Of a stretch of DNA of 64,000 nt, positions 35,617 to 63,592 are shown one piece after another (the stretch's first letter is position 1; each line of letters starts with the position of its first letter). The translations under genes and the position numbers were made by a program. The stretch is from Stegostoma tigrinum. Its lineage: Eukaryota. Below the pieces are notes generated by a model. The model was not told the origin of the DNA. It searched no databases and was given only the letters and a program-made list of their open reading frames with translations. The stretch lies in the NCBI RefSeq assembly GCF_030684315.1, contig NC_081354.1, positions 27,336,226 through 27,400,225 on the forward strand. The letters are read 5' to 3'.

Positions 35617-36169
35617 ACAAGGACTTAGAAGTTTGAAGGAAGAAATTGCTCCATGTCTCAGTCTCAAATCTTTTATTCTGATACTATGCCCTAAGTTCTA
35701 GACACTCCCGCGAGGGGAAACATTCTCTCAGCATTTACCCTACCACATCTTGAATAGTCGGCTCTTTTGTTCTCCCTTCCAAAATGAATAACTTTGTTCA
35801 GTGAGCATAAATACTAACAATTATTCAAAATATACAAGAGCTTACTTAATCTACAACATTTTGTAGGGCCTCTTCTGATTCTGCAAGCTGGTAGTGCACA
35901 GGTTTGCTTCTAGTACCTCTAATTCTCACCATCCAATTTTTTGAATGTTTGTTCAGTGTACAGATTTAAAAATGTTAATAACCAGAAGGCCTCCTGTGCA
36001 TTTAACCTCAGGACACCCGAAAATAGCCCAGGTCTTCTACAAACGACCACTGCCTCCGACTGTTTTAATAACAATTATCATTCAAAGCCTCTTTTGCTTC
36101 AAACGCAGCTCACTGCTTTCGTCCTTCCACCCCCAACAATTCAAACGTTCAGTAAAAGACGGTTTTATT

Positions 36170-36800
36170 TTTACCCAAGCGACGTCTCCGTTCGCCGATC
36201 TAATCAGCCGCACATAAAGCACGATGGCGTCACGTCTTCACGTTCGGGGTGGTTAGCCAATCAGAGTCAGTTCCACCCTATGACCTGCCCCTATAACGCC
36301 GTGAGCCGCCTGCATGTGTCACGCCCCTTTATCTCTGTTCTGCCTCCCTACAGCTCGTGCCTGTTGTCCGTGCGCTACAGCGCCGCCTCTGACCGCGCAC
36401 CTTTCATTCCTCACCTCGCGGTGCTCGTTCGGTGCTGACGTAGTTCCTGTGGCCGTTGGCCTGGTGACGGTGATTCATCATTGGTGGTGGGGGCGGGGGA
36501 AGAAGTTCCTTCGGAGCCGTAACCCTGTGAGTAAAGTCCCTCGGTTGCCGAGGGATCTGGAGGCTCCGAGTCTACTGCCATAAGGCAAGAGGGCTGAGTG
36601 GCTTTCAGTTCCACTTTCTCCGGGGAGTATCCAGCAGCGGAGCCTGGGCTGGCCACTTGTTGCTGCCTCTCCACCTGGTTAATTCCCGTTCTGTTTGCAC
36701 CATCACGGGGACTCTTCTCGAAAACCACTCGGCCTTCAGTTCAAGTGGTCCCATCCTTTACCTCCTGTGCCAGTTGTGCGCTGTTCAGAAGCGGGCTGGA
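36170..36800. promoter_or_regulatory. ELMOD2: CpG-island promoter and non-coding first exon of ELMOD2
   Basis: CpG-dense region with CCAAT at about 36257, a GC box (ggggcgggg) at about 36490, CRE-like tgacg/cgtca elements and YY1-like gatggcg; candidate donor CT|GTGAGT at 36526/36527. Confidence 0.7.
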
Positions 36801-41322: not shown

Positions 41323-41467
41323 ATGATTAGTTTAATTTGGAATTACCTGTACAGCACTCTTCTGAGGTCCTGGATGAAGTGGATTTTAAGAAAGATTACT
41401 GGAAGATGTGAACTACAACGTATTTGTGCCAATACTGTTCAAGGAGCAGAGCGAACAATGAAGATAG
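41323..41467 (+). CDS. ELMOD2: ELMOD2 coding exon 1 (start codon)
   Basis: MISLIWNYLYSTLLRSWMKWILRKITGRCELQRI...ERTMKI matches the ELMOD2 N-terminus; acceptor cag at 41317-41319, donor G|GTGAG. Confidence 0.95.
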
Positions 41468-42533
41468 GTGAGCAGTGGGGAAAGCTATTCCTGAATTATA
41501 AGTAGAGTATTAACTACTGCAATTAAAGCACACTTTTTTTATTGTATTATGGCCTCAGTGTTCCATGCTTAGGCTTGGCATTCAGGAACATTCATTTGCC
41601 TCATCCTTATATTATCCAAACCTATTTATTTTGGAAAAACCCTATAATATTTCCTCTTTGATTCTATGACTGTATAAAAACTTACAGCACAGAAACAGAC
41701 CCTTTGGTCCAACCTCTTCTATGCTGACCAAGTTTCCAAAACTAAACTAGTCCCATTTGCCTACATTTGGTCCATATCCCTCTAAACCTTTTCTATTAAT
41801 GTACTTGTCAAAATGTCTTTTAAATATTGTAACTGTACCTGTATCTATGACTTTCTTTGGTAATTCATTCTACGTATGAACCAACCTCTGTGAAGAGGTC
41901 CCTTTTTAAATCTTTCATCTCTTATCTTAAAAATATGCCCTCTAGTTTTAAAATCTCCTATCCAAGGAAAATTCCCCAGATCATTCTCTAATCTTGTAAT
42001 CTTAGTGCAATTTTTTCTGTACATCTTTTAAAATTGTGGATTCCAGGACTGCAAGTTGTATGCTAAGTTTAATTTGACTAGAGTATATGTATGATTATTA
42101 GAGCTGTAAGAATATTTTCACTTCATTTTGTGCACACTTAAGATCTTTTGATGGAACCTTACATTAACATTTCTCATTAGCTACTCCACAACCTTGTTGT
42201 TACTAATTGTAGAATTTTGTCTAGTATGAATTCAAGATTGGTCCACAGTTTCTTCATCTAGATCCTTTTCAATAATGCATAGAACTATATTTATGGTTAA
42301 TATTGTTAAAAGATAACTTGCAGATGAAAAATATTTTAATCTTTTAAAACAATTATTACATTTATAAACATTTATAACAATTAGAACAGTTGTTAACTTG
42401 TGCAAGTTTTGTATCCATCTTAGTATACTTGTTTGCCATCCATACTTGATTTAAGCATATTTCCTGAAAATCTTTTCTAATGTACTGAAAATTATTTAAG
42501 CTAAAAGCTAAAATTTTCATTTCTTTCAAATAG

Positions 42534-42562
42534 AATATTCTTTGAAATCATCCAGAAACGAA
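42534..42562 (+). CDS. ELMOD2: ELMOD2 coding exon 2 (29 nt)
   Basis: tag|AATATTC...GAA|gtaagt; EYSLKSSRNE; phases are compatible with both neighbouring exons. Confidence 0.9.
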
Positions 42563-43089
42563 GTAAGTGAGATTCACTTTTTTGTCTTCTTCTGCTTGAT
42601 AAATTAAGTCAATATTATTCTTGGTTATCGAGGTACTGGGCCTGACCCACAAGAACATTGATTTTTCCCTTTTATAGTTGTATGGTCTACTAAGAATTTT
42701 CTCATGTTCTAGCTCCCCTGTTTCATTCCACCATATGTCTCCGTTCAATGTCAGAAGCTAAACTTGGTGAAATTTGTCCTTCACACTGGAATGTGGTAAC
42801 TGAAATACTGCTAGTAAGGTGTGATCTGAGCTTCAGCTGCTGTGCGAGAAGTACGCATTCAGCATGAAGACAATTGTACTTCGTTAAAGAAATCCACTTA
42901 AAGATCTACATAACTGTATGATACTGAGGAGATCAATCTGCAAGTTATTTAGCCTGAAGTGGGATATTCGTGGAAGAAGCAAGAAACCAATGATAGAGAA
43001 GAAGTAAAACTCTAAGTAATCCAGTACAATAAAATGGTGTAGATACTGCTTCAATCAGTGTAAGCATTTTATAAGTATATTAAGAGCAA

Positions 43090-45490
43090 AAGGATATTTG
43101 GAGAAAGAGGGTGTAGGTAAGATCTTAAATCAATGTTTTTCATCTGTATTCACAAAGGAGAAAGATACTGTAGCTGGAGATTTTGGTTGGGTTGGTGAGG
43201 TTCTAGAAATGTAAAGATTAATAAGGAGGAACTGTTAGATATTTTATCAGACATACTAGTGCAAAAATCCTTAGGCATGATGAGATGTATCCCAGGCTGG
43301 GAATTGCCCAGCCCCTGATGGAGATATTTAATACTTCACTGATTTACTGGTGAAGTGCCAGATGACTGGAAGATTGGCAATGTGGTTCCTTTGCTCAAGA
43401 AGAGCAGCGAAGATAGGCCAAGTAATTAGACCAGTTACAAAAACAAAGTTGCTGGAAAAGCTCAGCAGGTCTGGCAGCATCTGTGGAGGAGAAAAATGAG
43501 TTAACATTTCGGGTCCGGTGACCCTTCCTCTGGGAAAACATCAGTTTATATGCAGAAAGTAGGGAGTTGGATGGGGTAGGGAGTAAATGATAGGATAGAG
43601 CCCAAAGAGAGAGAAAGAGAGTCGGACAAACAAAGGAGTTGCTAACGATCAGGCTGGGAGGGTGAATAGTTGTTATTGGGGACTGTTAGTGACTATCAAC
43701 AGGGAGTCTGTAGTCGCAGGCTATGTGGTAACAAGGCCTGGTGTGTGGGGTGAGGCGCTGGGACATGGGAGAGTTTCGGCCCTAAAATTATTGAACTCAA
43801 TATTGAGTTTGGAGGGCTGTAGGGCCCCCAAGTGGAAAATGAGGTGTTGTTCCTCCAGTTTGCATTGGGCTTCACTGGAACACCATAACAAGCTGGAGAC
43901 AGATGTTGGCCAGAGAGCAGGGTGGTGCATTGAAGTGACAGGTAGTTTGAGGTCTTTTTTGTGAGCAGAATGTAGATGTTTTGAGAAGTGGCTGCCAAAT
44001 CTACACTTCCTCTCCCCAATGTAGAGGAGAATTAGACCAGTTAGCCTTATGTCATTAGTAGGGAAATTATTGAAAAAAAACTTGAGGCTCAGGATTAATC
44101 AATCCTTGGAAAGGCAGGAATTGATGTGGGATAGTCAGCATGGATTCATTAGAGGGTGATCACAGGTCATAAAATCCCTACAGTGTGAAAGCGGGCCCTT
44201 TGGCCCAACAGGTCCACACCGACCCTCAGAGCATCCCACCCAGACCATCCCCCTATAACCTGCTAATTTACACATGGGCAATTCTTGTCTAACTAATTTA
44301 GTTGAGTTCTTTTTGAAAAGGAACTAAACATGAGGTTAGGCAGTTGATTTGGTTTACATGGGTTTCAATAAGGCTTTGACAAGGTTGCAAGTGTAAGGCT
44401 GCTTCAAAAGCTAATGGCTTGTGGCATCCAAGGCAAGTTGACCAACTGGATGCAAAATTGCCATTTGAAATAGGCTACAAAGGGTGATGGTGCAGGATTG
44501 TTTTTGTAATAGGAAGCTTGTGACCTGTGGTTCTGGGACCCTTGCTGTTTATGTACATTAATGACTTGGATGTAAACATTGAATGTATAACTAGTAGGTT
44601 TGCAGATGATACAAAAGTTGGTGGTGTTGATGGTGAGGAGAATGGTCTCTGGATATAGTCTGATATTGATCAGCTGGTAAATTTCACAGGGCAGTGGTAG
44701 ATGAAATTTAATCTGATAAATGTAAGGTGATGCATTTTAGAAGGCCACATAAGGGTCAGATGTACACAATAAATCACAGGTCCCTAGGGAGTACTGAAGA
44801 ACGCAGGGACCATAGTGTATAAGTCCATAGATCCCTGAAGGTCTCTGCAAAGATACAGTATAGTGAAGAAGGCAAACAGGATGCTCACCTTCATTAGCTG
44901 GGGCATGAAATAGAGGAGCAGGGAAGGCTTGTTACAACTTCTTAGAACAGTGAGTAGGACAGATGGAATACTGTGTACATTTCTGGTCACCACACTATTG
45001 GAAGGATGTGATTGCACTGGAGTGGGTACAGAAGGGCTGTTGCCTGAGGTGGAAAGTCTCAGTTATGAAGAGAGCATGAATAGGCTGAGTTTTCCTCCTG
45101 GAGCAGAGGAGGCTGCAGAGGTATCTGGTCGAGATAAATTAAATTACAGCATGGACGAGGTAAATCATGAGAATCTTTTCCCTGTGGCAGATGTGCCTAA
45201 AACTAGAAGGCATAAGTTTAAGGTAAAGAGCAAATGGTTTAGAGGAGATCTGAGGAAATGTTTTTTCCACTCAGAGGGTGGTAGAAATATGGAAAGCACT
45301 GCCTGAGAGGGCAGCGAAGACAAGTACTCCCATAACATTGAAGATGCATCTGGATGAGCAGTTAAAATGCCTGGATAAAGTAAGCTATGGACTAAGGTGC
45401 AGGGAAAGTGGGATTAATGTGGTTTGGTGTTTGTTTGTTGGCAGACATGCTGGGCCAAAAGGGCCTGTTTCTATGCTGTATGATTCTAGT
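43090..45490 (+). mobile_element. Degenerate CR1 LINE interrupted by a PLE fragment and a SINE tail
   Basis: Motifs VPDDW..NVVPL, SQHGF, KFADDTK-like and TRRHKFKV; 3' end gggccaaaagggcctgtttctatgctgtatg. Confidence 0.8.
43438..44029 (-). mobile_element. Second PLE family, 3' fragment (GIY-YIG C-terminus plus pseudo-LTR)
   Basis: 14-bp TSD aattagaccagtta (43424-43437, 44030-44043); LYIGE...EAQCKLEEQHLIFHLGALQP...NIEFNNFR. Confidence 0.85.
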
Positions 45491-46680
45491 GGGAGGGATA
45501 GGGGCGAAGAAAATTGGCTTAATCTCTGGAGTACTGGATCCCATGTGTTATACTGTGATTTAAAAAAAAACGGGTTTTAAAGTTGAGACAAATGTGATTT
45601 TTGATTTTACTTCTGTAGAGGTGATTTGTTTTAGGAGGTCAAAGTCATTTTTGAGTAGTTAAGTTACCTGTAGAGTTAGTCAATGAATTTTTTGCAAAGT
45701 TAAACTTTAGTGACATACAAAAAGGCAGATGAGGACCACAACCAGATTTAAATTGAGAGGAACCATTTCATACCAGCAGAAGGGCATTTTAGTCAGTGGC
45801 TGTCAAAGCAAACCTTAAAACTGTTTTAGCAGGTTAAATATACAGCATTGTTCTTAAATTTTAATTTAGAAAAGTAAGTGAAATAGCTACTGTCTGTATA
45901 TCTTTGGATGAGACTGTACAGGGATAATCACATCTGAATGTGTAGGAAGTCACCATAGGGAATGCTTGCAACTTAGTTAAGAAATTATAGTTAAGAGTAA
46001 AATTCAGTGAGTGTTTGTCAAGGATATTGCTGGGAAAAGGGTCAATTCTTTTGCTGTTTACTATAAGATCTTTCAAAATTTATTTGCTATATTTTGTGCA
46101 ATAAACTGTTCTTTACTACGTGAATATGTTCAGTGACTGAACACCACTGCAACGAAACTGTAAAATTAAAACTTACTCTGACAAATCATGTTTTACTCTG
46201 TGACCTGACTTGTCCAGTTTTACCCTCCTTTAGGATCACAATGGTAAAGTTCATTGTTATACAATAAATAACGTGGCGGCGGGGGGGCGCGGGGAGAGGA
46301 GGAGTTGTTTCTCAACAATATATGTAATTCTAATTCCTTAGAAACATTTGGCACCCTAGACACTAGTATTCCTGATGTAGGACAGTGTTTAATCATAAGT
46401 AAGATGAAGCAGGGAGCAACATACTTGAGTAAATTTTACTTTGCAGGTTTATACTTGCTGGTACTTCTGCCCTGTGGGGAATGTCATTCTGCTGGGTTAT
46501 ACAATTGCCACTTTGTCAGAGAAATGAACAACTGAAAAGGAGAAGAGATGTAGTAGCACATTTTAATTTGCACCAACATTGACATTAAACATTCTGAATG
46601 CTTATTTCCCAAAGGCATTAACAATGTTTAATAGTTTAGTGCTAACTAATATTTGTTTCCACAAATTGATTCTCATTTAG

Positions 46681-46778
46681 GCTTTAAAGACATCAGTGGC
46701 TGGCAGTGTGGAAGATGTGGAGAACAGAGTTCGGGATATTATGGTGATAAAAAAGATTTCCATTCAGAAAAATCCACA
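46681..46778 (+). CDS. ELMOD2: ELMOD2 coding exon 3 (98 nt)
   Basis: ttag|GCT...CCACA|gtaag; ALKTSVAGSVEDVENRVRDIMVIKKISIQKNP aligns to ELMOD2 VDDIMKEKNINPEKD. Confidence 0.88.
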
Positions 46779-47575
46779 GTAAGCTTTGAATTGTATTCAT
46801 AAATCAGCATGAATTTTTTAAAAAATTTTATTGTCCCTTTTAAATTTTTCAATGTTTCTACTGGAGCTTTGAACGTGTGAATGCTCAAAAATTGTTAGGC
46901 AGGTGCTGGAAATCTTGAAATATAAAGGAAAATGCCAGAAGTACTCAAATCAGGCAGCATTTGTGGAGAGAAAACGTTAATGTTTCAGAATAGTGACCTT
47001 TTGAGTAAAACATTAACACTGTTTCTCTCCTCGCTGATACTGCCTCACCTGCTGACCTTTCCAACAATTTCTTCATATTTAGTAAACAGTATCCATGTGC
47101 ATATTTTACATGACTGAGATTTAGAAGTGGGAATATTGTTGCGCCTTTAGCTCCTCTTAATTGCTGCATTATATTGCCCTCATTATAGATAACTAACTTA
47201 TCACAAAGCAGGGATGGAAGCATGTAGCTTAGGAACAAACCACTTGCACTTACTCTGAAATCGTTATTGCATTCTTCTCTCTATTTTCCTCCTCTTTTTC
47301 TAAAATTAGTTATTTTAGAGTATGATCCCATGGTTGCTGTCCACATCTTACCCAAGGGACTGTTCATTAAGTGAACGTAGATTATAACTGAAAGTAGATC
47401 ATTTGGTCACGAGAACATTACAAAGCAGATTATCTGACCTCCTAATGCCACATGTGTTACTGGGTAACAATGAAAATTTGTCCAATCTCCTTTCTCTACA
47501 GGTAACAAGACCAGTTGTAGTATACCTGTCATTTCCCCAGACCTAAAATTTTGCTATGTCAGCATGAAGCCTGAA

Positions 47576-48401
47576 TCTCTTGTAAAAGCTAGTTAGGTTA
47601 ACAACTCAGCATAGTTAATGCATACTCCAAGCAGCTATGTACCATGACACTTTCTCCTCCCCCATCATACCCTACAGGCAGGATGATCCCCAAGAGCTGG
47701 TGCTCTTTGGTCTCCAAACACCTAACAATGAAGACAGTTCCCAGATGACACAGTAACCATTATGTTTAGCTGCATTATTTTAATGCAAGAGTAAAGTTAA
47801 AGGCTGGTTGACTACATCAGAGCTCATTAACCAGCTATTGTGCAGTTATCACACTAATCTTTAATTCATATTTAAATGAGGCTGTATTTGATACTGAAAA
47901 TTTGATCCTTGACCTTTCTTACGAAACCAGTTTTGAAGAAAACCTTATTCTGAACAAACTTTGGCATTCTTAAGTCAGAAATAGCAAAAGCCCTGATTCC
48001 TTTTAACTATGTAAAACTTGAACTAAGTTGCTTTCTGAAAAGTTTTGCCACCAATTCAACTTCAGATGTTTTAATACCAGTGCTTGGCCATACTGCCTCA
48101 TTTTAAATATGAATTAAAGATTAGTGCAATAACTGCACAGTAGCTGGTTAATGAGCTCTGATGTAGTCAACCAGACTTAACTTTACTCCTGCATTAAAAT
48201 AATGCAGCTAAACATAATGGTTACTGTGCCATCTGGGAACTGTCTTCATTGTTAGGTGTTTGGAGACCAAAGAGCACCAGCTCTTGGGGATCATCCTGCC
48301 TGTAGGGTATGATGGGGGAGGAGAATGTGTCATGGTACATAGCTGCTTGGAGTATGCATTAACTATGCTGAGTTGTTAACCTAACTAGCTTTTACAAGAG
48401 A
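47576..48401. repeat. Long inverted repeat with about 312-bp arms and a 200-bp spacer in an ELMOD2 intron
   Basis: 47576-47887 is the reverse complement of 48090-48401, with roughly ten differences by eye. Confidence 0.92.
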
Positions 48402-48824
48402 CTCTCAGATTTATTCACAGCAATACGATTGTAGGATGAGTCATTATGAAATTATAGGTCTTATTAGTTCAACATATGTTGTGGAAAAGTGACTAGAACC
48501 TGTAATTAGGGGCAGAGTGATCAAGCAGATAGGCAAGTATGGCTCTATTTCATTAGTACAATGTAGACCTATAAAGGGAAAGCCCTGAGTAACAAAAGTA
48601 GTTGCACTTTTTTCTTTTGAGTATAAAATGGCAGATGAGGGAAAATCTGTGTATGTTGCTTGTATGAATTTTCAGAATCCATTTGGAAATATTTCACAAC
48701 AGAAACTTAAGAGTTAAGAATGTTTGCTATAAAAGTTAACCATTTGACATAAGGCATTATGTATAAAGTAATATGCAAAGAATAAGGTTAGTAGGTTTGT
48801 ACTCATATATTGGCAAGGTATTTT

Positions 48825-50975
48825 TATTCATTCAGGGCATGTGGGCTTTGCTTGCTTGGTCAGCATTTATGGCTCATCCCTAATTGAGATGTTGGTGATG
48901 AGCCTGTCTTCTTGAACCATTGTAATCTGCTTTGGTTAAGTATGCCCACAGTCCTGTTAAGGAGAGAACTCCAGAATTTTGGCACTGTGACAGTGAACGA
49001 ATGGAAGTATATTTCCAAGACCATGTGGTGATTGCCTTGGATGGGAGCTTGAAGGTTGTGGGGTTCCTGTTAATCTGCTGTTCTTGTTCTGCTAGACGTT
49101 AATGATAATGGGTTTGCAAGTGCTGTCAGAGGAGCCTTTCTGCAATGAATGTTATAGATGGTACATAGTGCTGCTGCTATGCATCATTGTCAGAGTGATT
49201 GGCACCACATGCATAAGCAATCAAGCAGGCTGCTTTGTTCTGAATGGTAGACAAAAAGCTGAAAGAACTATATAGATGCTCAATCTGAAACAAAAACAGA
49301 AATTGCTGGAGAATCCCAGGAGTTAACCTCTTTCCCCCAAGCTTTCCCCACCCCCACATACCACCAGATCTTGTCATCACATGGGCTGCCACCACACAGT
49401 ACCCATTGTCAGCCACTCATAGCCCCATTAGCAGCTTTTCATTCCCCAGACTGACCTTTAACCATTTCTCTGTCTGTCCAACTGTTTTTCTCTCTTTTGG
49501 GTTCCATATCCATCTATCTTATTCTTCAGCCAAGACTCCTTACCATCTTCTGTAACAAAACCCATCCTTTTCCTTGCTACCATCAGTTCTGAAGTAGTGT
49601 CACTGGACCTGAATTGTTAACTCTGGTTTCTGACCACAGAGGTTGCCAGACATGCTGATGTTTTCAAGCAGTTTTTGTTTTTGTTTTTGTTCTGAATTGT
49701 CAAGTTTCTTAAATGTTGATAGCACTGCTCTCATCCTGACTTGTGCCTTACAGATAGTGCACAGCCTTTGGGGAATCAGGGGTGAGGTATTTGCAGGATT
49801 CCTAGACTCTGACCTGCTCTCCAGGCCACAGTTTTAATATGTTGAGTTCAATTTAGATTTCAGTCAATGGTAATAACCCTCAGAATATTCGTACTCAGAA
49901 ATTCAGAAATGGTAATACCATTGAATGTCGAAGGGTGATGGTTTGATTCTTTCTTGGTGGTGGTCATTGCTTGGCACTTTGCCACTTGCATATTGTCCAG
50001 GCTTGCTGCTTTTGGACATGCACTGCTTCAGTATGAGAAGTCCTGAATGATACTAAACATTGTGGCATCAGTGAACATCCCCACTTCTAACCTTACAAAA
50101 GATAATTGATGAAACAGGTGAATGTGTTTGGGCTAAGGGCATACCCTAAGGAATTCCAATGGAGATATTCTGGAAATGAATGACCTCCAACCATCATCTT
50201 TTGTGCTAGATATGACTTCAGCCAGTAGAGTCCCGTGATTCCCATTGATTCGACCATTGGGGCTTTTTGATGCCATGCTTGATCACGAGCTGGCAGAGGA
50301 AGTGGTGGAATGTGGTACAATTAAAACATTTAAAAGGCATCTGGATGAGCTTAGAGGGATGCTGGCAAATGGGACTAGATTAATTTAGGATATCTGATCA
50401 GCATGGACAAGTTGGACCAAAAGGCCTGTTTCCATGCTGTACAGCTCTATGACTCTATGACATGCAGCCTTGATGTTAAGGGCAGTCATTCTCACTTCCT
50501 CTGTGGAGTTCAGCTCTTTTTTTTTTGTCCATGTTTGAACTAACGATGGTATGAGGTCATGAGTTGAGTAACCCTTGTAGAATGCAAACTGAGCATCAGT
50601 GAGCAGGTTTTGGATTAGCAAGTGCTGCTTCATAGCACTATTATAATCCCTTCCATCCATTGACAGATGAGTAAAAGTATATAGGTGCTGTAAGGCTTAA
50701 TTTGCCTTGCCTTTTGCATAGAGGACATATCTGGGCAATTTTACATATTGACCGCTAGACGCCAGTATCATAGCTGTACTAGAATAGTTTGTCTAGGGCT
50801 GTGGCAAGCTCTGGATCACAGGTTTTCAGTACTATTGTTCAAAGGTGTCAGGGCCCATAACCCTTGTTGCATCCACCAACTTAAACTATTTCTTGATATC
50901 AGAGTGAATCGAATTAGTTAAAGACTCGCACCCTTGACACTGGGGACCTCCCAAATCAAAATGGACCATCCACTC
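48825..50975 (-). mobile_element. Degenerate L2-like LINE with nested PLE (49246-49685) and CR1-tail insertions
   Basis: Minus-strand peptides NLLTDAQFAFYKGYSTHDLI, VRMTALNIKAA and WLKSYLAQK; the nested PLE is flanked by tttgttctgaat (49234-49245, 49686-49697). Confidence 0.65.
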
Positions 50976-52663
50976 AACATAGGAAAGGTTCAGAGGGATA
51001 TGGGCCCAAACAGGTAAACGGGACTAATTCAGTTTAGGCAATCTGGTTGGCATGGATGAGTTGGGCCAAAGGGCTTTGTTTCAATGCTATATGACTCTAG
51101 GTTAGGCCAGCACATTTCTTTCCCTAAAAACATAAGTGAACCAAATTAATTTTCTTTTAATGACAATCATTAGACTTTTCATTCCAGATTTTTAAATTCA
51201 AATTCCACAATCTGCTGCAGTAACCAATCCTTAGAGTATTACCTGGGTCCCTGGATTACTAGTCCAACAACAATACCAATTTTAGAGTCTCCTAGAAGTT
51301 TCAGCTTTTTATTGTTTGTAAAATGAAGGCAGCCGGAAGTATTGCAAGTTTGTTGGCATTGAGTTAGTTGTCATGGTAAGCAGTATAAATGGGAGAGAAA
51401 GTTGCAATGTGACGTTGGTAGATTGTGGTTGTCAAAACTTTAGATGTGGAATTTAATATATAGAAACATGAAGTCATCCAGTTTGAACCTAAGAAATTTG
51501 AATCCGGGTATTCTAAATGATGAAAAGCTATAAACTGTGGAAGAGTAAAAAAATTTTTGGTGTCCCTATGCATAAATCATTTAAGCTGCTGGACAAGCCC
51601 AAAATTTGACTCTAAATGTGGTGTTAACTTTTTATCTTGCGGAAGTTGAATCCAATAGGAGAGAAACTGTGTTAGAGTTATGCCTAGTTTTAGTTAGATT
51701 CCACCTGCAGTACTGAGTTTACTTCTGGTTTTACACCTTAGGAGCAATGCACTAGTCTTGGAGTAGTAGAGCCCAGATTTGCTAGAATAATACAGGGCTG
51801 TGTATGGATACTTGACGTTCTCTTTGAAAAGTCTCTATGACATCTAATGATTTCTGTGGTAAGAATGTTAACCTACAATTGTTTGTAGCATTTACTAAGG
51901 ATTCTCAGCATCAAAGCTGCAGTGATGTCATCAAATGGTCCAAGCAACCAGTTATACTGAAGGTTTCTTGCAGACAGCCAAGCAGGAAATTACAGCTAAA
52001 ATCAAATCTCTTTTGAAAGATTTTTACTGAATAGAAAAATTTGGTCTACACTTGAAATATGAAGACAGAAGCTGAAATATAAAATAACTTCCTTTTTTAA
52101 TTGTTTTGAAACACTAACTTTAGAAAGACCTGAAGATAAATCAGAAAAGCATTCGGTTGTGAGAAGCTAGAAATAACCTCAACATTTAGCAGGGTTCCAC
52201 ATATTTTTCATAGCCAGGTTGTTCAACCGTACTTACTACTCATCACTGTTAAAATCCTAGTTACAACTCGCTGAACAAAGCTTAACTTCTTTGAGAAGAA
52301 GAGAGCAGGCAGGTTTTTCAGGTCAATTGATTTCACTGTTGCCAATTATTTTGGGCATAGGCTGGGAGGGCTTATTGCATAGCCTCCAACAGTAGGGAAT
52401 GACAGAGTGCAACTTTAGTGTTTCCATTGTTACTGCACTTGTGATTAATCCTGACATTGCGGTCAGGTTCACAGATGAAAAGTGAATTTGCCATCAAAAG
52501 CTCTACAAATTCAATCTTACTATCAAAAATACCAGTGCAACTGATTTGTTTCTCCTTGAATTCCTTTGTGAAATTAGTAGGAGCACTGAGACACAGTCTT
52601 GTGTTAAAAGCATTTTAAAAAGGCTAACAAATTCCTTTTATGGATGTGTTTTTATTTTTGTAG

Positions 52664-52793
52664 CTTCAAGTTAAATTTACAGATTTGCTTGCTTCAAGTC
52701 TCTGGCTTTAAAAAACTTTTCGCTGATGTAGAATACCTACGGAAGCAACCATTTGACTCTTCAAACAAGCAACATGAAGATCTGCTATTAAAG
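52664..52793 (+). CDS. ELMOD2: ELMOD2 coding exon 4 (130 nt)
   Basis: FKLNLQICLLQVSGFKKLFADVEYLRKQPFDSSNKQHEDLLLK; tag acceptor and AAG|gtatg donor. Confidence 0.95.
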
Positions 52794-53591
52794 GTATGTT
52801 TATTGAATTTTCAATCTTACTGTTTACTCAGGCAACCTTGCCTTACTGTACTGTAATACTTAAAAATTTATTTTGGGAAGATAAATGGCATTGATCTTTT
52901 AAGAGGATTTTCAATGGAGAACTTGCAGTGTTTGTCATAACCCCTTGAGTCTCTCAACAACTTTTGGGGGTTAACGGAAGAATCTTGAAGTGGTCTGTCA
53001 TTGTGAATTACCGACTTCTCTCCATTGTTGCTGATTAAAAGCAAAATGTAACAGTGATTGTGAGGGAACCATTTTGTGTGTAAAGATAACATTGTGCGCA
53101 TTGAAATTATTTCAATGGGGAAAAAGTGAAAGGTGGAATCATTACCCAAAACGTTTAGTAGTTACTAATATTAAGCACTCTATTTGAAACCTGTTTCGTG
53201 AAGCATGGCTCACTTACTTTGGGAATATATTCTTAAAAGTACATGTCATTTATATTTTCACAATTTTTTTTCCTGTACCCGTGAGTATGAAGTAACTTGA
53301 CTTCCTTTTGGATGAAAAGTGGCAATTTGCTTTTCTTTAAAAAAAAACCCAGATGTTAACAAGTTGAACAAAACGTGCTGTGCCTGAGGTGGTTGAACAA
53401 ATATGTCTCTCTTGAACTGTTCTGTTGTCATCCATAACTAATCAACTATAAAACAGAAGCTAATCTATTTAAACCCTTCCATTTTTCCTTTTTAATAATT
53501 GCAGTTTGTGTGAAGGACTGTTCCAGTTATACTTTCATTGTTTAGTGTATCGTCTCATTTGCTATTTGTTTATTTCTTTCATAATTTTTAG

Positions 53592-53725
53592 TTGTGGCAG
53601 TTGATGATGCCCAATGTAAACTTGGAGTCAAGAATCACCAAACAGTGGGGTGACATTGGGTTCCAAGGTGATGATCCTAAAACTGACTTCAGAGGCATGG
53701 GAATGCTGGGGTTACACAACCTAGT
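53592..53725 (+). CDS. ELMOD2: ELMOD2 coding exon 5 (134 nt), ELMO-domain GAP motif
   Basis: LWQLMMPNVNLESRITKQWGDIGFQGDDPKTDFRGMGMLGLHNL contains the conserved WxxxGFQxxxPxTDFRGxG motif with the catalytic Arg; canonical splice sites. Confidence 0.97.
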
Positions 53726-54645
53726 GTAAGTCTTTGTATAGGATATAAATAGCACTTTTTTTTTTCTCCCCCAAAAAACACCACAGGTTAAGTAATCCCT
53801 TCCATCTTAGCATGTTGTTCTGTGATTTTGTGTTCTATGTATTGAAAAGATTAGTTTGCAAAGTAGATTTTGCAACTCTGTGTACAGGAGGACCGATATC
53901 AGTCTATCCGCTCCAGCAGCCACCTGATCACTGATTTTGTTTATTTTAAGTTATGCCTTAGAATCATTTCTGTTTAAAACCCTCAATTTTTCTGTAATTT
54001 AGACAGTCATTATTGTCACAATGCTAACCTCTTGAATACAACAAGAATTAAGACTGTGTGGGTGGGGCTAAAATGTGGATATGATACTGGCTTTCCCATT
54101 GGTCCTGCAATTCTACTGACTCCTGTTTTAATTCTGGGATTTTGGAAGGTGTGATACCTGCACCACAAGAAGACAGACATTGTTAAATTATGGTATGTGA
54201 TTCTAAAATATTACTGCTTTTTGAGTTAGTTGATATGTAAGTTTACAGCACACTTATTGATCTTCTGCTAAAACTTTTTTTGTTGGAGAAGTACTTCAAC
54301 TCAAACTTGCCCTGAATTTACAGAGATATCCTTTGTTATAAAGGTAGATGCTTTCTTCCTGAGATGCAAGGGGTAGAATTTTTATTTCAGAGAATTATTC
54401 ATCCTCCTGCTTGGCCATTCTTAAAATGTCTGCTACATTCATTGCACTTCGTAAATGTGGGAAAGCCAAATTTCATGTGATTTGTTCTGATGTCAAAAAT
54501 AGTTTACAGTGGGATTTCTCCGTGTGCTAACTCTTCTGACGTACAAGGTGCTGTGTCATAGAAGGAAGAAATACGAAGCTCAAATATTGATTCTTAATGG
54601 CAGGTGTGATTTTTATTTTTTAACTTGTGTCATTAAACTGTTTAG

Positions 54646-54714
54646 GTTCTTTGGGGAGCATTACACCAAAATAGCTCGCCAGACTCTTTCGCATTCAAAT
54701 CATCCCAAAATTGG
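54646..54714 (+). CDS. ELMOD2: ELMOD2 coding exon 6 (69 nt)
   Basis: FFGEHYTKIARQTLSHSNHPKIG; ttag| acceptor and |gtaagt donor. Confidence 0.95.
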
Positions 54715-56193
54715 GTAAGTGAAAGCATGTAGTTTTTATGCCATGTCGTTCATTTTACAAGGAAAAGCCTACCAAAAATGTGTTAACATGATTTAAGCGT
54801 GATAGCACCTTTTTGACACCTGTTTGAAATCTCATTTCAAATTAATATGGAAATTCTGTCTGAGCAAAATCTAAAGTGAAAACTAGCAGCATTGACTACT
54901 TGCAGAATTTTAAGTGAACGAATGCTTTTGGAAGAAATTGCACTAACACCCTAATTTTTACAATGGAAATAATTTTTATGAAATGTTCTTGGTATGTTCA
55001 TAAGTGAGAGCCAGGCTGGACACTACCGCCCAGATCTAAAGGTCTCTGTAATGTCAATATAATCACTCGGTGTCTGGGACCCTGTGAAAATTGCCCCAAC
55101 TGTAATTGGAGTCAGAAACTTTAAAGGGTTTCACTTTAAATTAGAAGAATTAAAACCTGTTCCTATTCTTGGCTAACTATGAAAATGAGCCCCCTGACCT
55201 ACCACAGAGTTTTCCCCTTGATCACTTTCCTCGATCTTCCTTGAACACCAGACTTGCCTCCCCATCGCTGAACACCTGACAGCTCACCCTTCACATCAAA
55301 TGCCTGACCATTCATGACATGTGACCCATCTACTCTATCACCCACTTACTTAACATGCTGCCTCTAATCCCACAAGTAGCAGTGGGCCCACTAGACCCCT
55401 GCCCACCATTACGTTTTCTCCTTAATAGTAAAAGTGGCTTTGGGACCTTCAAAACTTTGGAATATGAGCCATTATTGCCATTAAAAGTGACATTTCTGTG
55501 CCAGTTAACTCCAAGGCTACCTCAGTAGTTTACTAGACTATTTGTTGAAATGGATCCTGAGAAGCTAAGAGGATAACATTTTGTCCAGTGTGGTTTAGAA
55601 TTCTGGGTTCTGATTCAGATCAGAATACTTGGTTCCATGCTTTTGAAGAAAGAAATTTACTTGTAAACCTGCTAGGATAAAGTCATGTTATCTAGCTTTA
55701 TTCTGATTTAATTGTTTAGTTCCATAAACCACAAAAGCAATTCAACCTGTTTTGCTCGAACTCAAGATAATTTAAAGTCAAGTTTGTTATCAGACAGCGT
55801 GTAAACAGAGCTACTCAGCTTTGATACAAGGACTCTCTTTCTTTTTTCGAAAAAGAACAGGAAATGTACTAATGAAATAAGATTAAAAATCTCCTTTTTA
55901 TAACCTAAAAGAAAACCAAAAAGACTGAAGTGGTCAGCAGTTCAGCAGCCACATGTGGGTAGAGAAGCAAAGTTAAAGGGCTCAGGGTGATCACTTTCCA
56001 TCAGAGCATCAAAGATCTTTTAGCAGTTAGTGTTATTTAGTCTAATTATATGCCGAAATGATTTGTATTGTTGCATATCGCACTGTCAGTAAATGTTGAA
56101 AATTAAGAATATTTTTCTTTTGCAAGCTTTAGAAAATAGTACAGATATTTAAATTGATTTGACAGCTAAAGCTGTGATATTTTGTGGTTCCAG

Positions 56194-56327
56194 ATATTCC
56201 TATGCTATAGTTGGAATAAACCTTACTGAAATGGCTTACAGTATGATGAAGAGTGGCTTACTAAAGAGTCATTTTTATAACCTCGTTCCTGGAGTTCCAC
56301 AGTTGCAACATTTTCATCAGTTTTATT
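56194..56327 (+). CDS. ELMOD2: ELMOD2 coding exon 7 (134 nt)
   Basis: YSYAIVGINLTEMAYSMMKSGLLKSHFYNLVPGVPQLQHFHQFY; cag| acceptor and |gtaagt donor. Confidence 0.97.
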
Positions 56328-58706
56328 GTAAGTACTTTAAACTGTAGAGGGTAACAGTCTAATGCTTATTTCTCACCAGAATATGTTTTGTTTGCAGTGA
56401 TACTGTGATTAATATCTGTGACAATAATGTTGCATGTCCAATTGGGTGTGAACTATTGGAAATGTAATAATACCCTATTAATTTAATGCTATAAAAGTAG
56501 TTAATTTTTAGCAATTGTAATGTATCTGACAGGTAAAGCATAAGTAATGTAATGTGTCATGACTGACTGTTGAGACCTGTCTCTGTCCATATAATGTATC
56601 TGACTACAGCACTTCACTTTCAGACTCTCGGAATATTTGTGCTTCCCAATTCTCTGTAATTTACACGTTCTGACCCTATGTCATTATATTCAGCTTATAC
56701 ACCTGAGGTTAGACTTATAGCCTCTCTCCATTAGCAAAATAGTTAACTGACCAATCTGGATCATTCTTAAAATCACATTGCTGAGATCGATAATTTACTG
56801 CATGGAGATTGCAAACTGAAATCCTAGTAAAGACAATGAATGCAATAGACATAATTGCCATCATACATTTTTCAGGTTTTTGATTCTTATTTTTGACCAC
56901 TCTTAGGAGACTAAATTTGAAGAAAGTTCAATGTACAGATTCTGTTCTTTCTTTCTATTTTCTTGAGAAATGCAGCATTTTACATGGTTATTTTACCAGC
57001 TGTGATTGAAAATGTCTTTTGGTGGCTCATGTGGCTCACATTTTACATGAAGTTGTTTTATGTCAAAATGCGGATTTGCTTGACTAAACTTGGATAGTTT
57101 GTACATAATGTATGCCTTATCATTTTTTTAGAATCTGTTATTGCAATAAGTTGATGGGTTGCTGTTGGTAATGTTACTGGACGTGTAATCCAGAGGTTCA
57201 GCCAATGCTTTGAAGACACCAATTTAAACCGCATTACAGCAATGAGGCCAATTTGAATTCAATTTAATTTGTTTAAAAAATCTGGAATAAAATACTAATT
57301 TAATCAAGAAATTACCAGATTTAAAAACCCATCCGAATCATGGAAGTCTGAGAGGAGGAAATTTCCCATTAATAAGCAGTCACATGTGACTCTAGATACA
57401 CAGCAACAATCATTTGAAAAGGCATAACAAGCCATTCAACTATACCAATCTGCAAAAAAAAGCAAAGCATCTTGCATATATCTACACCACATGGACTGCA
57501 GCATTTCATGAAAGTGGTTCATTTTTACGTTATCGAGGGCAGGTAGGAATAAGCAAAAAAATTTGGTCTTTTCTGTGATGAACACACTTCAAGAAGTAAA
57601 GGAAAACTCCTCTCTAAGGTCTAGGTGTGTTTTATGTTGAAGGATTTACCTTCAGCTCAAATGCCATTCTTTGATTTGTTTATTATCGCTAAAGTTGGCA
57701 TATTTTAGCTTCAAAAAAACAGCAGAAGTATTGTGTGTATTACAGAATACTCACTAACTTTAGCTTTGTCGTAAATGAGTTTTTTTCTCTGCTGATTTTA
57801 GTTTTCTATCATTTTAGCTGTGGTGACTATTGCTGTTGATTTACTGGATTTTTAAAAAATCTATTGTATAACATCTGCAGCATTTGGTAGCGGTTAATGC
57901 ATTCTTAACTTAAATTCATGGGCAGTTTTGTTTTACATCTATTTCTTATATTTAAAATAGATGTAAGTTAATTCTTTCAGAATATTATTCTAATATGATT
58001 GCAACTATTTTGATCTATTAGATCAAAGATTACTGTATATGTGGTTTGATTTATCCACATTCCAAAAATTATACCAAACCTTTTAGTGATTTAAAATATT
58101 GTTTACTCATCATATTTTACAGTATGTCAGTATGTGGTGCCTAGAGACATGTTATTACATCATAAGCATGTATAAATGCAAAATGTGCTATACCACAGTG
58201 GTGAGATATGGGTGTTAAGAGTCTGGAACACGTAGCCAGATGCGTCGTTGGAGACAGATCTGAAAAGGGGTGTCTAAGGCACTTTTTAGACAATCACATG
58301 AATATGCAAGGAATGGAGGGATAGGAACGAAGGGCAGGCAGAAGTGATTAGTTTAATTTGGCCCCATATTCAACACAATAGTGTGGGCTGAAAAGCCTCT
58401 ACCTGTGCTGTGTAGTACTGTCAGGTGTTGAAGTAATCTGATAGCTGGAGAACAATTGAGCTACACACGCGCACGCACATGCACACATATTTTCTGAACT
58501 TGTAATTTACTTATTTCCAATGCTGAGTGCATATTACCAGACCAAAACAGGATTGTACATATTTATGGGCAGATCACTATGGATGAGTGGTTAGAAATGT
58601 AAGTGAAACTGTAGTGTTCTGTGTTTTAGTTAGTGTACAGAATGGAAAAGAAGCATTAAGTAAATGCAGTCAGTTTTTGTGAACAATAGTTTCTATCTTG
58701 TTTTAG

Positions 58707-58858
58707 GTTACCTAATGTATGAGTTTGATCAATTCTGGTTCAAGGAGGAACCATCCAGCATCATGGAATTCAACCATTACAGAGAGCAATTTCATGAGAA
58801 GGTGAAACGGCTTTTACAAGATTCAAAAACATCGCTTACCTTGAACTTCAAAACATAG
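58707..58858 (+). CDS. ELMOD2: ELMOD2 last coding exon
   Basis: CYLMYEFDQFWFKEEPSSIMEFNHYREQFHEKVK...NFKT-stop. The eight exons sum to 891 nt (296 aa plus stop) in frame. Confidence 0.96.
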
Positions 58859-59618
58859 ACAGTAATTTGCAATAAGCCTGTGAGGTAACACTTGGAATTA
58901 ATTGCAAGATATGAGCTTATGCTGTGGATCTTTGATTTTTGAATAGATTTTTAACTTGTAAATAGGAACTGATTAAAAACATTGTGACTGAAATTCAGGA
59001 TGGATCCACTTTCACTATAAATGTGTCATCAGATTTGTTTCTGGCTGCCTGGTGTTTGGCATAAATATGGATAATTTATTTAGTGACATCCACAAAGCAG
59101 TAATTGAAATGGTGCTTCATTATGGAAGGAACTATTCAAAGTGTATATAAATTCAAATTAAAGAGATTTTCAATATTCCCTTTGGAGCACAGCAAGTAGC
59201 ATGAGTTTATTCCTTTAACATTTTTAATTGTACCTTGTTATTGCTGCTGCTCATACATGCAGTTTCATAAACACATCATGTTCAAAGCAGCACTCTAGCT
59301 TTTAGATTACTGAAGATAAACAGCAAATGGGGTTCTTTGAGAGCAATTACAACACTGTAATCTCCCCAGTTGTCAGAACAGGGCTTGGGTGGCTTAGCTA
59401 CTTCTGAACTTTGTGATTGCTGTTATGTCTACTATGACAAAGTACATCCTGAAGTTGGAGGATGCCAAGTGGCAAAAGGAATTCATCAAGGTTTTTTTTA
59501 AATAAAAGCAAAAGACTTGCAGGTACTTGAGATCTTAAATAAAAGTAGTAAGTGCTAGTGAAACTCTTAACAGGTCTGCTAGTGTCTATGTTACAAGAAA
59601 CAAACTTTAAATATTTTG

Positions 59619-60803
59619 AGATAATAAAATGTGAGGCTGGATGAACACAGCAGGCCAAGCAGCATCTCAGGAGCACAAAAGCTGACGTTTCGGGCCTAGA
59701 CCCTTCATCAGAGAGGGGGATGGGGGGAGGGAACTGGAATAAATAGGGAGAGAGGGGGAGGCGGACCGAAGATGGAGAGCAAAGAAGATAGGTGGAGAGG
59801 GTGTAGGTGGGGAGGTAGGGAGGGGATAGGTCAGTCCAGGGAAGACGGACAGGTCAAGGAGGTGGGATGAGGTTAGTAGGTAGCTGGGGGTGCGGCTGGG
59901 GGTGGGAGGAAGGGATGGGTGAGAGGAAGAACCGGTTAGGGAGGCAGAGACAGGTTGGACTGGTTTTGGGATGCAGTGGGTGGGGGGGAAGAGCTGGGCT
60001 GGTTGTGTGGTGCAGTGGGGGGAGGGGATGAACTGGGCTGGTTTAGGGATGCAGTGGGGGAAGGGGAGATTTTGAAACTGGTGAAGTCCACATTGATACC
60101 ATATGGCTGCAGGGTTCCCAGGCGGAATATGAGTTGCTGTTCCTGCAACCTTCGGGTGGCATCATTGTGGCAGTGCAGGAGGCCCATGATGGACATGTCC
60201 ATCATGGGCCTCCTGCACTGCCACAATGATGCCACCCGAAGGTTGCAGGAACAGCAACTCATATTCCGCCTGGGAACCCTGCAGCCATATGGTATCAATG
60301 TGGACTTCACCAGTTTCAAAATCTCCCCTTCCCCCACTGCATCCCTAAACCAGCCCAGTTCATCCCCTCCCCCCACTGCACCACACAACCAGCCCAGCTC
60401 TTCCCCCCCACCCACTGCATCCCAAAACCAGTCCAACCTGTCTCTGCCTCCCTAACCGGTTCTTCCTCTCACCCATCCCTTCCTCCCACCCCCAGCCGCA
60501 CCCCCAGCTACCTACTAACCTCATCCCACCTCCTTGACCTGTCCGTCTTCCCTGGACTGACCTATCCCCTCCCTACCTCCCCACCTACACCCTCTCCACC
60601 TATCTTCTTTGCTCTCCATCTTCGGTCCGCCTCCCCCTCTCTCCCTATTTATTCCAGTTCCCTCCCCCCATCCCCCTCTCTGATGAAGGGTCTAGGCCCG
60701 AAACGTCAGCTTTTGTGCTCCTGAGATGCTGCTTGGCCTGCTGTGTTCATCCAGCCTCACATTTTATTATCTTGGAATCTCCAGCATCTGCAGTTCCCAT
60801 TAT
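59619..60803. mobile_element. Palindromic PLE insertion (1154-bp palindrome plus 31-nt tail)
   Basis: Identical ORFs on both strands (59936-60436 minus, 59955-60455 plus); symmetry axis at 60195/60196; 16-bp TSD ctttaaatattttgag (59605-59620, 60804-60819). Confidence 0.93.
60680..60707 (+). ncRNA. Minimal type I hammerhead-ribozyme-like motif in the PLE pseudo-LTR; identical copies at 8648-8675 (+), 7471-7498 (-) and 59684-59711 (-)
   Basis: CTGATGA-A-GGGTCTAGGCCC-GAAAC-GTC: both conserved core boxes, a GGGU/GCCC stem II and a GUC cleavage triplet. Stem III is loop-less (palindromic ACGU) and stem I is only about 2 bp. Confidence 0.6.
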
Positions 60804-62899
60804 CTTTAAATATTTTGAGTCCAGTGAGACTCTTCAAGAGTTTCAAAGTCACATTGTACTCAACGTTAACTGTTTTGCTTTTCACAAATGCTGCCAGACC
60901 TGCTGAGTTTCACCAGCACTTACTGTTTTTAAACCAATAGGATGTTCATGTATTTACTAGCGGAGGATTAACTTCTGTGTGGTGTAAAATTAAATTTTCC
61001 AGTCTTAATCTGTTTCATTCTGACTATAGTAAATGCCAAAAAGTTCTAAAGTAACAATTAATGTATTTTCACAAAAACCTCGTATTATGAAACAAATAAT
61101 TCTAAATTTAATTTTTTGTGATAAGTCACGGGATAATCTACTCAAAGAACAACGTAGTCTGTCAATTTCGTGAAATTTTGTTTAATGAGTTCAAGTTATT
61201 GACAATCTTGCAGGTACAATTAAACTGAGCACCTCTTGAGGTACGTACTTTTAATCTTAGTGATTTTGTTAAATTGTGTGATGTGTAAACTAGCTGTTGC
61301 CACCAAGTGCATTGTAATGTATCACGTGGTTATATTTCATAGTGAAAAATTAACTACCAAAAAGTTAGTTAATAGATTATTGAAAAATTTCAAAATTAAT
61401 GTTATGGTCACTACAGTATTTGAAGAGGCATAAGGAAAAATGAGCCTCCTCTCACTCAGGAAAGCAAAGGAAGTGTTTTTCCATGCACCATTCCAGCTTT
61501 TTATTGATGATCCCTTATTGATGAGTAACAGTGAAAAGTTTTTTGTATTTATTACTGATTATTCTGGATAAAACGTTTGTAGCTGAAAGTTGCTAAATTT
61601 ATTGGATGAAATGCTCTTTTCCAGAAAGGTATGCTATGATGTTTGAAGTTTATATAGATTTCTACTGGTTGGCTTTCCATTTAAGAATGGGGTAGAGAGG
61701 GGTTGGTGGGGTGGTGGGGGAGATGAAGCTTTATTTTATGAATTTTTGCTGAAATAAATAGTTCAAAACTGAAACAATTAAACGCATCAATGTATTTTTA
61801 ACTCAGTTGGGATTTTTGGGAGGTCAACTGGGTATTTATCTAATCTTTAAGTCTGTATGTCTGCACAGAGGAATGTTGCTGCATTAAATATTAAATACCA
61901 TTGATGTGAAATCAATTTTGCACCAATTACTGACTCCAGAAGAAGTGTTTCATAGAAAGCATGCTGTGATCCATGAACATTCCCATAATTTCTCTCCATT
62001 CTCTGCTGCTTGCCAATATTTTGGAAAGAGGGAAATTTTTCGGATTTCAGAATCCACCACATCTCCTTCCTACGTTTGAACCATATTTACATTTGAAGGA
62101 ATTAATAGAGACTGTGTCTGTTAGAGAATGGCCACTGATCTATTGACTGAAGTTCAGGTGGTCAGATCAAGCTGCTATTTCTTGTGAATTTTTAGGGAGA
62201 GCAGGAATGCCTAAAGGCTGTTTTGATATACCGAATCAATTTGGTGCAGCATGTGGCTGATATTACTGCTACTGCAGATACATTGGGCAGAATTTTACTA
62301 AACATTTAACTGCATCAATGGCAGGATTTTTCACATGTTTTCTCTCCATATGTTATCTCAAGCAATTTTACTCTACTCACTTCCTATGTATGCACTGTGC
62401 TATATGGTAGTCTGCTTATGCTATAATATACTTAGCAGTGGTGGAAGTACTTGCCGCTGCTGGCACCATCTCTGCTGGTGCTATGTTTAAAACCCCAGCT
62501 GTGCAACAGGGCAATCACATTGGCCATGAAAAGGCCTTCATGCTACACATAATGGGAGGGAAACATGAAAATAAGCTTCTGAGAGCATGTGGATTATACA
62601 GAAGATAATTTGTTTGAAATGCAAGCTACGTCATCTGACAGTTAATTTCACCACAGCTACAAGAACCAAGCTATACAGCTAACTGTCTGTAGTGCTATAT
62701 TATGTTAGAAACAATTAGGGGGTTGCTACTTGTTTCCTAATGCCTGATCAATGTGGGACAGTCACATGCTGGAAACGTGAAATGGTTCAAAGTGTTTGCT
62801 TTTGCAGTTGTGCAAAAAAGTTAAGGAAAATTACAAATAGCTGTACTTGCTTCCAGGAGCAAGCAAGCAAGTTAGTTTAAAGCACCAAAACATTTACTA

Positions 62900-63592
62900 G
62901 TCATAGAGTTGTACAGCACACAAATAGACCTTTTCAGTTCAACTTGTCCATACTGACCAGATATCTTAAATATAGTCCAATTTACCAGCATCTGGCCCAT
63001 ATCCCTTTAAACCCTTGCTATTCATCTACCCATCCAGATGCTTTTTAAATGTTATTGTACCTACCTCTGATTCCACCTCCAAGGAACTATGAACCTTAAC
63101 CCCAAGATCCCTTTACTCAACAACTCTATCCAGGGCCCTCCCATTAAGTATATAAGTCATGCCCTCATTTGCCTTACAAAAATGCAACACCCCACACTTA
63201 CCAAAATTAAACTCCATTTGCCTCTCCTTGGCCCATTCGATCAGGGTTCTGTTGAGTTCTGAAGATAACCTTCTTTGCTGTCCAACACACACCATTTTTT
63301 TTTGGGCTGGGGCAGTGGTGGGAGAATTGTCATCTGCAAACTTACTAACAGTTCCTTCTATATTCCAATCCAAATCTTTTATGACAAAAAGCAACAGACC
63401 CAGCACTGATCTTTGTGGTACAAAGGTCACTAGTCAGAAAAACAACCTTCCACCACCACCACTGTCTGTTTCCTGTCTTCAAGTCAATTTTATATCCAAA
63501 TGGCTAGGTCTCCCTGAATTCCTTGTGATCTAACTTTGTGAACCAGTCTACCATGCAGAAACTTGTGGAGTGCCTTGCTGAAGTCCATACAG
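62900..63592 (-). mobile_element. CR1 LINE fragments
   Basis: VPQRSVLGLLLF, SKFADD, WAKERQMEFNFGKCGVLHF; CR1 3' UTR at about 62900-63060. Confidence 0.85.

Follow-up and report, generated by a model that had tools for sequence, protein, structure and literature searches.

In Penelope-like elements (PLEs), a described pattern of insertion comprises an inverted, truncated copy beside a direct copy, a 31-bp tail, a target-site duplication (TSD) and palindromes at the junction of both copies (PMC3846280, PMC8557442, PMC8969392), and the formation of such inverted copies is presented as an unsettled question (PMC8557442, PMC11167929). In this work, we analyzed a 64-kb window of Stegostoma tigrinum NC_081354.1 (the whole stretch of DNA under study, to which all coordinates and family counts refer), in which one insertion, hereafter the focal copy, consists of a 1154-bp palindrome and a one-sided tail. 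The focal copy, identifiable by its sequence as a 5'-truncated PLE with the 3' end in both orientations, follows an architecture that is already known; what stands out is its length, its perfection and its zero spacer, which make it an unusually clean Penelope insertion.

Among the closest described systems, Pen2a of Adineta vaga, a PLE with inverted pseudo-long terminal repeats (pLTRs), shares with the focal copy the inverted copy beside the direct one, the 31-bp tail at one end only, the TSD and the junction palindrome (PMC3846280, PMC8557442); however, its pLTRs are given there as 181-218 bp, whereas the focal arms are of 577 bp, equal in length, identical and without a body of open reading frame (ORF) between them, so that the whole insert bar the tail is one palindrome. 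The Poseidon element PAc of Anolis carolinensis displays a hammerhead motif followed by two tail-bounding ends, the outer one ~118 nt from helix II, and an AT-rich target, as does the focal copy, but it belongs to the Penelope/Poseidon clade, which is described without the CX2-5CxxC linker found in the window family (PMC11167929). Endonuclease-bearing (EN+) PLEs of the Neptune/Nematis type share a C-terminal GIY-YIG domain with an internal cysteine pair and an upstream CX4CxxC linker, as seen in one longer window copy (sister C) and in a whale-shark relative, the likeness being by motif only. In the twin priming of L1, both target nicks prime cDNA synthesis, and joining by microhomology leaves an inversion inside the TSD. 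There, non-overlapping parts of one RNA are copied, whereas in the model proposed here both cDNAs would copy the same stretch, giving a palindrome. Long palindromes of vertebrates also include the human palindromic AT-rich repeats (PATRRs), with ~600 bp for PATRR22 (PMC7999016, PMC1851657). The focal palindrome is about twice as long, and in contrast to the AT-rich PATRRs it has 57% G+C and a GC-rich centre. Such a centre should slow cruciform extrusion.

Kilobase-long perfect Penelope palindromes, or Penelope palindromes of sharks, were not found in the literature, the coverage of which was thin for subscription papers, and the supplements of PMC11167929 and PMC3846280, which lay outside it, may show such copies; a search there for sequencing artefacts of this kind gave no paper either. 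An earlier reading of this DNA from its letters alone (the sequence-only reading) had called long perfect palindromes rare in genomes; rarity was overstated for this insertion, as inverted 5'-truncated copies with junction palindromes are the described Penelope pattern and occur in 6 of the 8 family insertions in the window. A transposon specialist would be surprised by the length and the perfection only, not by the architecture.

The comparison of 59619-60772 with its own reverse complement, within a palindrome scan of the whole window, revealed 0 mismatches over the full 1154 bp and a 0-nt spacer, the next-longest even palindromes having arms of 8 bp. A second repeat analysis agreed, with arms at 59619-60195 and 60196-60772 of 577 bp each and 100% identity. 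The perfect spacer-less palindrome and the tail that follows it on one side only, both claimed in the sequence-only reading, are thus confirmed as observations, and the interpretation attached to them is partly supported. The features of the focal copy and its target are:

59504-59604, minus strand: left part of the insertion target, a small and older inverted-repeat element from another family
59605-59620, plus strand: left TSD copy, 16 bp maximal, last 2 nt also matching the element end
59619-60195, minus strand: tail-less arm, the element 3' end in inverted orientation and 5'-truncated, with an outer end at the same element position as in the tail-less arms of sisters B, C and E
59684-59711, minus strand: mirror of the hammerhead motif
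60192-60199, no strand: centre, an 8-bp self-complementary site native to the element, occurring in sisters A, C and D
60192-60455, plus strand: open frame covering the C-terminal end of the GIY-YIG endonuclease region, with 85% identity to a named protein of the zebra shark and 89% to one of the whale shark
60196-60772, plus strand: tail-bearing arm, a direct 5'-truncated copy
60324-60440, plus strand: three 39-bp units, identical in both arms
60680-60707, plus strand: minimal hammerhead ribozyme motif from a pattern scan, with the core, a helix I of 2 bp, an additional base preceding helix II and a palindromic helix III
60773-60803, plus strand: 31-nt family tail, ending at +116 to +118 from the helix II start
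60804-60819, plus strand: right TSD copy
60820-60931, plus strand: right part of the older target element

The direct repeat reported to bound the insert is indeed 16/16 identical (59605-59620 and 60804-60819; chance ~9e-7 within +-30 nt of the two ends), but it shares 2 nt with the element at each end, as the left arm begins inside the left copy and the tail motif enters the right copy; the true duplication is therefore 12-16 bp, consistent with the 14-15 bp of sisters A, B, C and E. The two identical 166-aa ORFs, on opposite strands, are also present, with a TTG start, and cross the centre from antisense sequence into the endonuclease C-terminus; being identical as an automatic consequence of the palindrome, they were rejected both as genes and as independent evidence.

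The claim of a single TSD-flanked insertion, carrying the PLE 3' end in both orientations together with the family tail, is supported by the flanks and by the reconstructed empty site. The flanks are not mirror images, except for one 39-nt stretch at 85%, which is part of the older small repeat hit by the insertion. Once the insert and one TSD copy are removed in silico, the empty site aligns across the junction with a paralog of this repeat (129 columns, 69%, E 1e-8), and three paralogs are colinear with it. Judged against random 16-mers, the 16 nt to the right of the junction rank 1/5000 for one paralog (strong), 167/5000 for another (modest) and 2458/5000 for the third (not significant). 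This restoration of the older repeat, used here in place of an empty allele, excludes a plain fold-back chimera, and has no bearing on the palindrome centre.

With regard to the identity of the element, an ORF combining reverse transcriptase (RT) and GIY-YIG regions, as in EN+ Penelope, is found at the level of the family, and the focal copy retains only its C-terminal end. The whale-shark relative of the focal frame matches GIY-YIG above the Pfam cut-off and RVT_1 below it; sister C aligns over the RT-region and endonuclease-region parts of an RVT_1 protein (456 columns, E 1e-55), its own GIY-YIG match being weak (E 0.024, below the Pfam cut-off), and comparison of its frame with solved structures gave no match. 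Both sister C and the whale-shark protein carry the CX4CxxC linker upstream of a GIY-YIG region with an internal cysteine pair, and CCHH-type cysteines are displayed by sister C and two shark relatives, in a part of the protein upstream of the focal truncation point. A CX2-5CxxC linker before the endonuclease is described for Neptune and Nematis, and Penelope and Poseidon are described without it (PMC8557442); the family is therefore tentatively placed in a Neptune/Nematis-type clade, by the linker motif only, and a Penelope/Poseidon assignment, characterized by the absence of this linker, was rejected as the linker is present.

The hammerhead pattern occurs at 4 sites in the window, all within the Penelope-like family, and represents a predicted ribozyme whose features agree with the minimal hammerhead description in PMC4209133; no hammerhead model was matched in an Rfam scan at E<=5. 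Further family traits agree with EN+ Penelope, for which a tail of 30-40 bp at one end only is characteristic: the focal tail is of 31 nt and the same tail is found in sisters A, B, C, E and G and in an insert nested in A, while 5' truncation with tandem or inverted terminal copies and a TSD, another EN+ trait, is displayed by the focal copy, 5 of the 7 other insertions being inverted as well. The 39-bp unit is present twice in one arm of sister A and once in the other, and once in B, C and D; extra units are also found in the zebra-shark relative. A miniature inverted-repeat transposable element or other DNA transposon was rejected, given the 31-nt tail between the right arm and its TSD copy, the identity of the arms as retrotransposon 3' ends and the variable TSD length of the sisters. 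A microRNA precursor was likewise rejected, the 18/18 Rfam matches falling below gathering scores and being centred on, or spanning, the hairpin.

Eight family insertions were recognized in the window, namely the focal copy and the following seven:

7411-8790, no strand: sister A, inverted arm longer than direct arm, 14-bp TSD with 1 mismatch
7891-8005: insert of 115 nt nested in sister A, 9-bp TSD, 0 substitutions and 1 indel relative to the focal copy
15117-16608, no strand: sister B, inverted arm, ~500-nt spacer, direct copy with tail, 15-bp TSD
31732-34128, no strand: sister C, the longest copy, 14-bp TSD, CX4CxxC linker, coding sequence for RT and GIY-YIG broken
34693-35616, minus strand: sister D, a single copy without tail, inverted partner or clear TSD
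20695-20917, no strand: sister E, miniature head-to-head copy, tail-less arm longer than tail-bearing arm
5959-6112, no strand: sister G, decayed miniature head-to-head copy

An inverted arm is missing only in D and in the nested insert, 7 of the 8 insertions have a TSD (9-18 bp), and the focal copy alone has no spacer. One element position is the common end of the tail-less arm in four insertions (the focal copy, B, C and E). The arms also differ in extent: sequence further 5' is present in the tail-less arm of A (~63 nt) and of E (~31 nt) but absent from their tail-bearing arms, and B and C show the reverse, with a longer tail-bearing arm. The junction of B shows a 4-nt microhomology, as judged against the native sequence in C. 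As a separate observation, the inverted arms of B (15572) and C (32165) have an identical stop nucleotide in element coordinates, possibly an RNA 5' end or the boundary of a repeat in their source copy.

A property that the sequence-only reading had not mentioned best explains the missing spacer: the focal centre coincides with a self-complementary site of 8 bp that belongs to the native element sequence, as evidenced by sisters A, C and D. This 8-mer is the only self-complementary site of at least 8 bp in the 924 nt of D and in the 624 nt of the A direct copy, and one of five in 1950 nt of C; the chance of such a site is ~1/256 per position. Since joining two copies head to head by microhomology, with no spacer, needs a self-complementary site, this coincidence is explained by any microhomology route. 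Folding of the RNA around the native 8-mer in two sisters gave no consistent strong structure accounting for a stop there. Separately, rearrangements lie within ~10 nt of the native 8-mer in 4 of the 5 insertions covering it, a post hoc observation of a possible hot spot: the focal centre (60192-60199); in A, the nested insert together with 20 nt that were copied again (7882-8205); and 6-nt deletions in B (16030-16045) and C (33540-33555).

The focal copy is a real and relatively young Penelope-like insertion, and we lean towards its generation by two separately primed cDNAs that were joined by microhomology at the native 8-mer. The element endonuclease would cut both target strands 12-16 bp apart, as suggested by the TSD, and a separate reverse transcription would be primed by each target 3' end, the two start sites being at the tail end and 31-33 nt upstream of it, for which there is an in vitro precedent in the Poseidon clade. 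Both cDNAs would then extend toward the RNA 5' end, halt at the self-complementary 8-mer, anneal to each other through it and be filled in; the product would contain the inverted arm, the direct arm and the tail between two TSD copies, with zero spacer, and in the sisters two cDNAs that were made in this way but differ in length would leave a spacer. The precedent is the anole Poseidon protein, modelled as a dimer, for which cleavage and extension of both strands are described, with two start sites, one at each border of the tail, and with a start region at 111-118 nt of an ORF starting from hammerhead helix II (PMC11167929); the distance of the focal tail end from helix II (+116 to +118) agrees with it. 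The common end of the tail-less arms in the focal copy, B, C and E is as expected of a second RT start site, and the tail-less sequence of A and E that extends beyond the tail-bearing arm cannot come from copying the tail-bearing cDNA, which favours two cDNAs.

Fold-back self-priming, in which one cDNA stops at the 8-mer, folds and copies itself, the tail being then trimmed off the copy by the endonuclease or by repair, would make the arms identical by construction (0/577 differences, including the three 39-bp units), and it has published grounds, as Arkhipova et al. read the palindromes at Penelope inverted junctions as self-priming (PMC3846280) and Craig et al. attribute the tail to endonuclease-mediated resolution (PMC8557442). 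Nevertheless, we consider it unlikely here: the computed energies (-8.3 kcal/mol for the two-molecule 8-mer duplex and +1.3 kcal/mol for the possible 2-bp-stem fold-back hairpin) favour annealing of two cDNAs, self-priming cannot produce A or E, and an extra step is required for the common stop position of the focal copy, B, C and E. Slightly less probable still is a deletion in vivo, by which a longer-armed insertion with a spacer later lost its centre through slippage between two 8-mer copies, which are direct repeats of each other in opposite arms because the site is self-complementary. Sister A does have the 8-mer in both arms, ~170 nt apart, and microhomology-mediated deletions are reported as common in Penelope copies (PMC3846280); against this, spacer removal makes a repeat less stable (PMC7999016), and the focal copy shows no other post-insertion change in its arms (0/577) or TSD (16/16).

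The sequence-only reading had argued from the TSD and the tail that the palindrome is not a fold-back artefact, and a mirrored read is indeed excluded by them; however, they leave a loss of the central spacer possible, as the self-complementary 8-mer permits slippage between the arms, and such a loss, whether after insertion or during sequencing or assembly, would give an identical final sequence. A real insertion with technical perfection, in which amplification or sequencing jumped over a spacer at the 8-mer, or one arm was overwritten by the other in polishing, seems about as improbable as self-priming. Palindromes are difficult to clone and sequence, nanopore base calling is degraded by inverted duplicates (PMC7229812), and the exact mirroring of all 8 homopolymer runs of at least 5 nt fits homogenisation as well as accurate data; on the other hand, youth is evident without arm identity (the insert nested in A equals the focal copy at 114/114 aligned positions), focal-specific residues and extra repeat units recur in the named zebra-shark protein, and another inverted repeat of the window retains 96.5% arm identity and its spacer. 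We give almost no credence to the whole feature being a fold-back read or an assembly chimera. Perfect mirror symmetry without a spacer is the usual appearance of such artefacts, but here the flanks are unmirrored, the tail is one-sided, a 16-bp TSD is present, the empty site restores an older repeat and sisters of the same design exist.

Several points weigh against the two-cDNA reading. A single assembly sequence was analyzed, and the zero spacer of the focal copy rests on this assembly; the right-of-junction match in the empty-site test is strong for only one of the three paralogs. The in vitro data belong to the Poseidon clade, whereas the window family bears the Neptune/Nematis linker. 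Later deletions could explain the arm asymmetry of A and E, which are two cases only; the microhomology at the C junction is putative; and both published attributions cited above, of the junction palindromes and of the tail, differ from ours. The choice of mechanism at the focal locus thus relies on two informative sisters and on inference across clades. A broader proposal, that shark PLEs integrate through two reverse transcriptions, one per nick and start site, and that stops at the native 8-mer recurrently give kilobase-long perfect palindromes which persist in the germ line, is conceivable but rather doubtful at present. Were it true, the genome-wide set of copies would read out the second-strand step of Penelope transposition and, in a vertebrate that mutates slowly, would offer a dated natural series in which palindrome decay and the load of double-stranded RNA could be followed.

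With respect to age, the focal copy is young relative to its sisters. It differs from A and D by 8-11%, while the insert nested in A shows 0 substitutions and 1 indel against it, an identity (114/114) with P ~0.006 were the insert as old as A. The focal-specific residues and extra 39-bp units recur in the zebra-shark protein, and are therefore subfamily traits rather than decay. Absence of arm differences (0/577) bounds divergence at 0.26% per arm, which, at the mutation rate of another species, the epaulette shark (7e-10 per generation; PMC10587355), allows up to ~3.7 million generations. The insertion had been called very recent, which stands relative to the sisters but not in absolute terms within this bound; the instability expected of spacer-less palindromes (PMC7999016) would argue for far less. 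As an age marker, CpG content was uninformative (9 in 614 nt of the focal copy; 9 in 486 and 6 in 579 in A; 10 in 573 in the C direct copy).

The use of arm divergence as a clock in the manner of LTRs, also put forward in the sequence-only reading, was neither validated nor refuted, and such a clock is unproven. Divergence between arms (44/486 in A, 56/412 in B and 53/407 in C) is of the same size as between copies, and the arms of one insertion are not consistently grouped in trees: on 323 shared columns the A arms were paired with 60% support, in a gapped tree they were not, and those of B and C were paired in neither. Quartet counts were 6:4:2 favouring the arms of A, and 2 versus 4 and 2 for B and C; the A arms also differ in the number of 39-bp units, and the inverted arms of B and C share their stop nucleotide. 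The TSDs of B and C have 0/29 mismatches versus ~11% arm divergence (Fisher p=0.039), and all five sister TSDs together have 4 mismatches versus 6.6 expected (p=0.21, not significant).

The focal copy lies downstream of the ELMOD2 gene. On the plus strand, seven exons (41317-58852) are matched by a named shark ELMOD2 protein, which carries an ELMO domain; the exon closest to the insertion, which matches shark ELMOD2 proteins at 83-85%, is:

58707-58858, plus strand: last coding exon of shark ELMOD2, by protein match

The distance from the stop codon to the start of the palindrome is 761 nt, and AATAAA signals are found upstream of it (59501 and 59538) and inside the left arm (59623); from these positions, the palindrome may lie outside the mature ELMOD2 mRNA. 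As the focal copy is a dead 5'-truncated copy, no function is implied for it. If RNA polymerase reads through from ELMOD2, a 577-bp RNA duplex would form, probably an ADAR substrate, and Penelope copies are reported as heavily edited in lizard (PMC5625713). A perfect 1154-bp palindrome near a gene 3' end is a candidate fragile site and RNA-editing substrate, and the locus offers a test case for palindrome persistence. Together with the sisters, it is also a simple test case for how inverted copies form, the points at issue being which arm is longer and whether spacer-less centres fall on native self-complementary sites.

Regarding the target, a general preference for palindromic sites was not seen by eye, the focal TSD being quasi-symmetric and those of B, C and E not. 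The focal landing site in the older repeat is, by eye, apparently a decayed hammerhead-like stretch. The older short-repeat family has a distant likeness to the Penelope end, with some copies head to head, and is found at 59504-59620 with 60820-60931, and at 15-102, 10539-10704, 37927-38049, 43439-43530 and 49584-49690.

Elsewhere in the window, a CpG-rich stretch at ~36100-36900, upstream of the first ELMOD2 coding match, is probably the ELMOD2 promoter as judged by eye, with sister D ~500 nt before it. An ELMOD2 intron contains an inverted repeat (47573-48404) with 316-nt arms of 96.5% identity and a ~200-nt spacer, for which neither a paralog in the window nor similarity to the Penelope family was found. 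An open frame with nine C2H2 zinc fingers, detected as an 84-nt tandem repeat, lies on the minus strand at 29470-30282, and three diverged copies of another interspersed repeat (family D12) are located at 11574-11705, 41714-41845 and 62939-63070.

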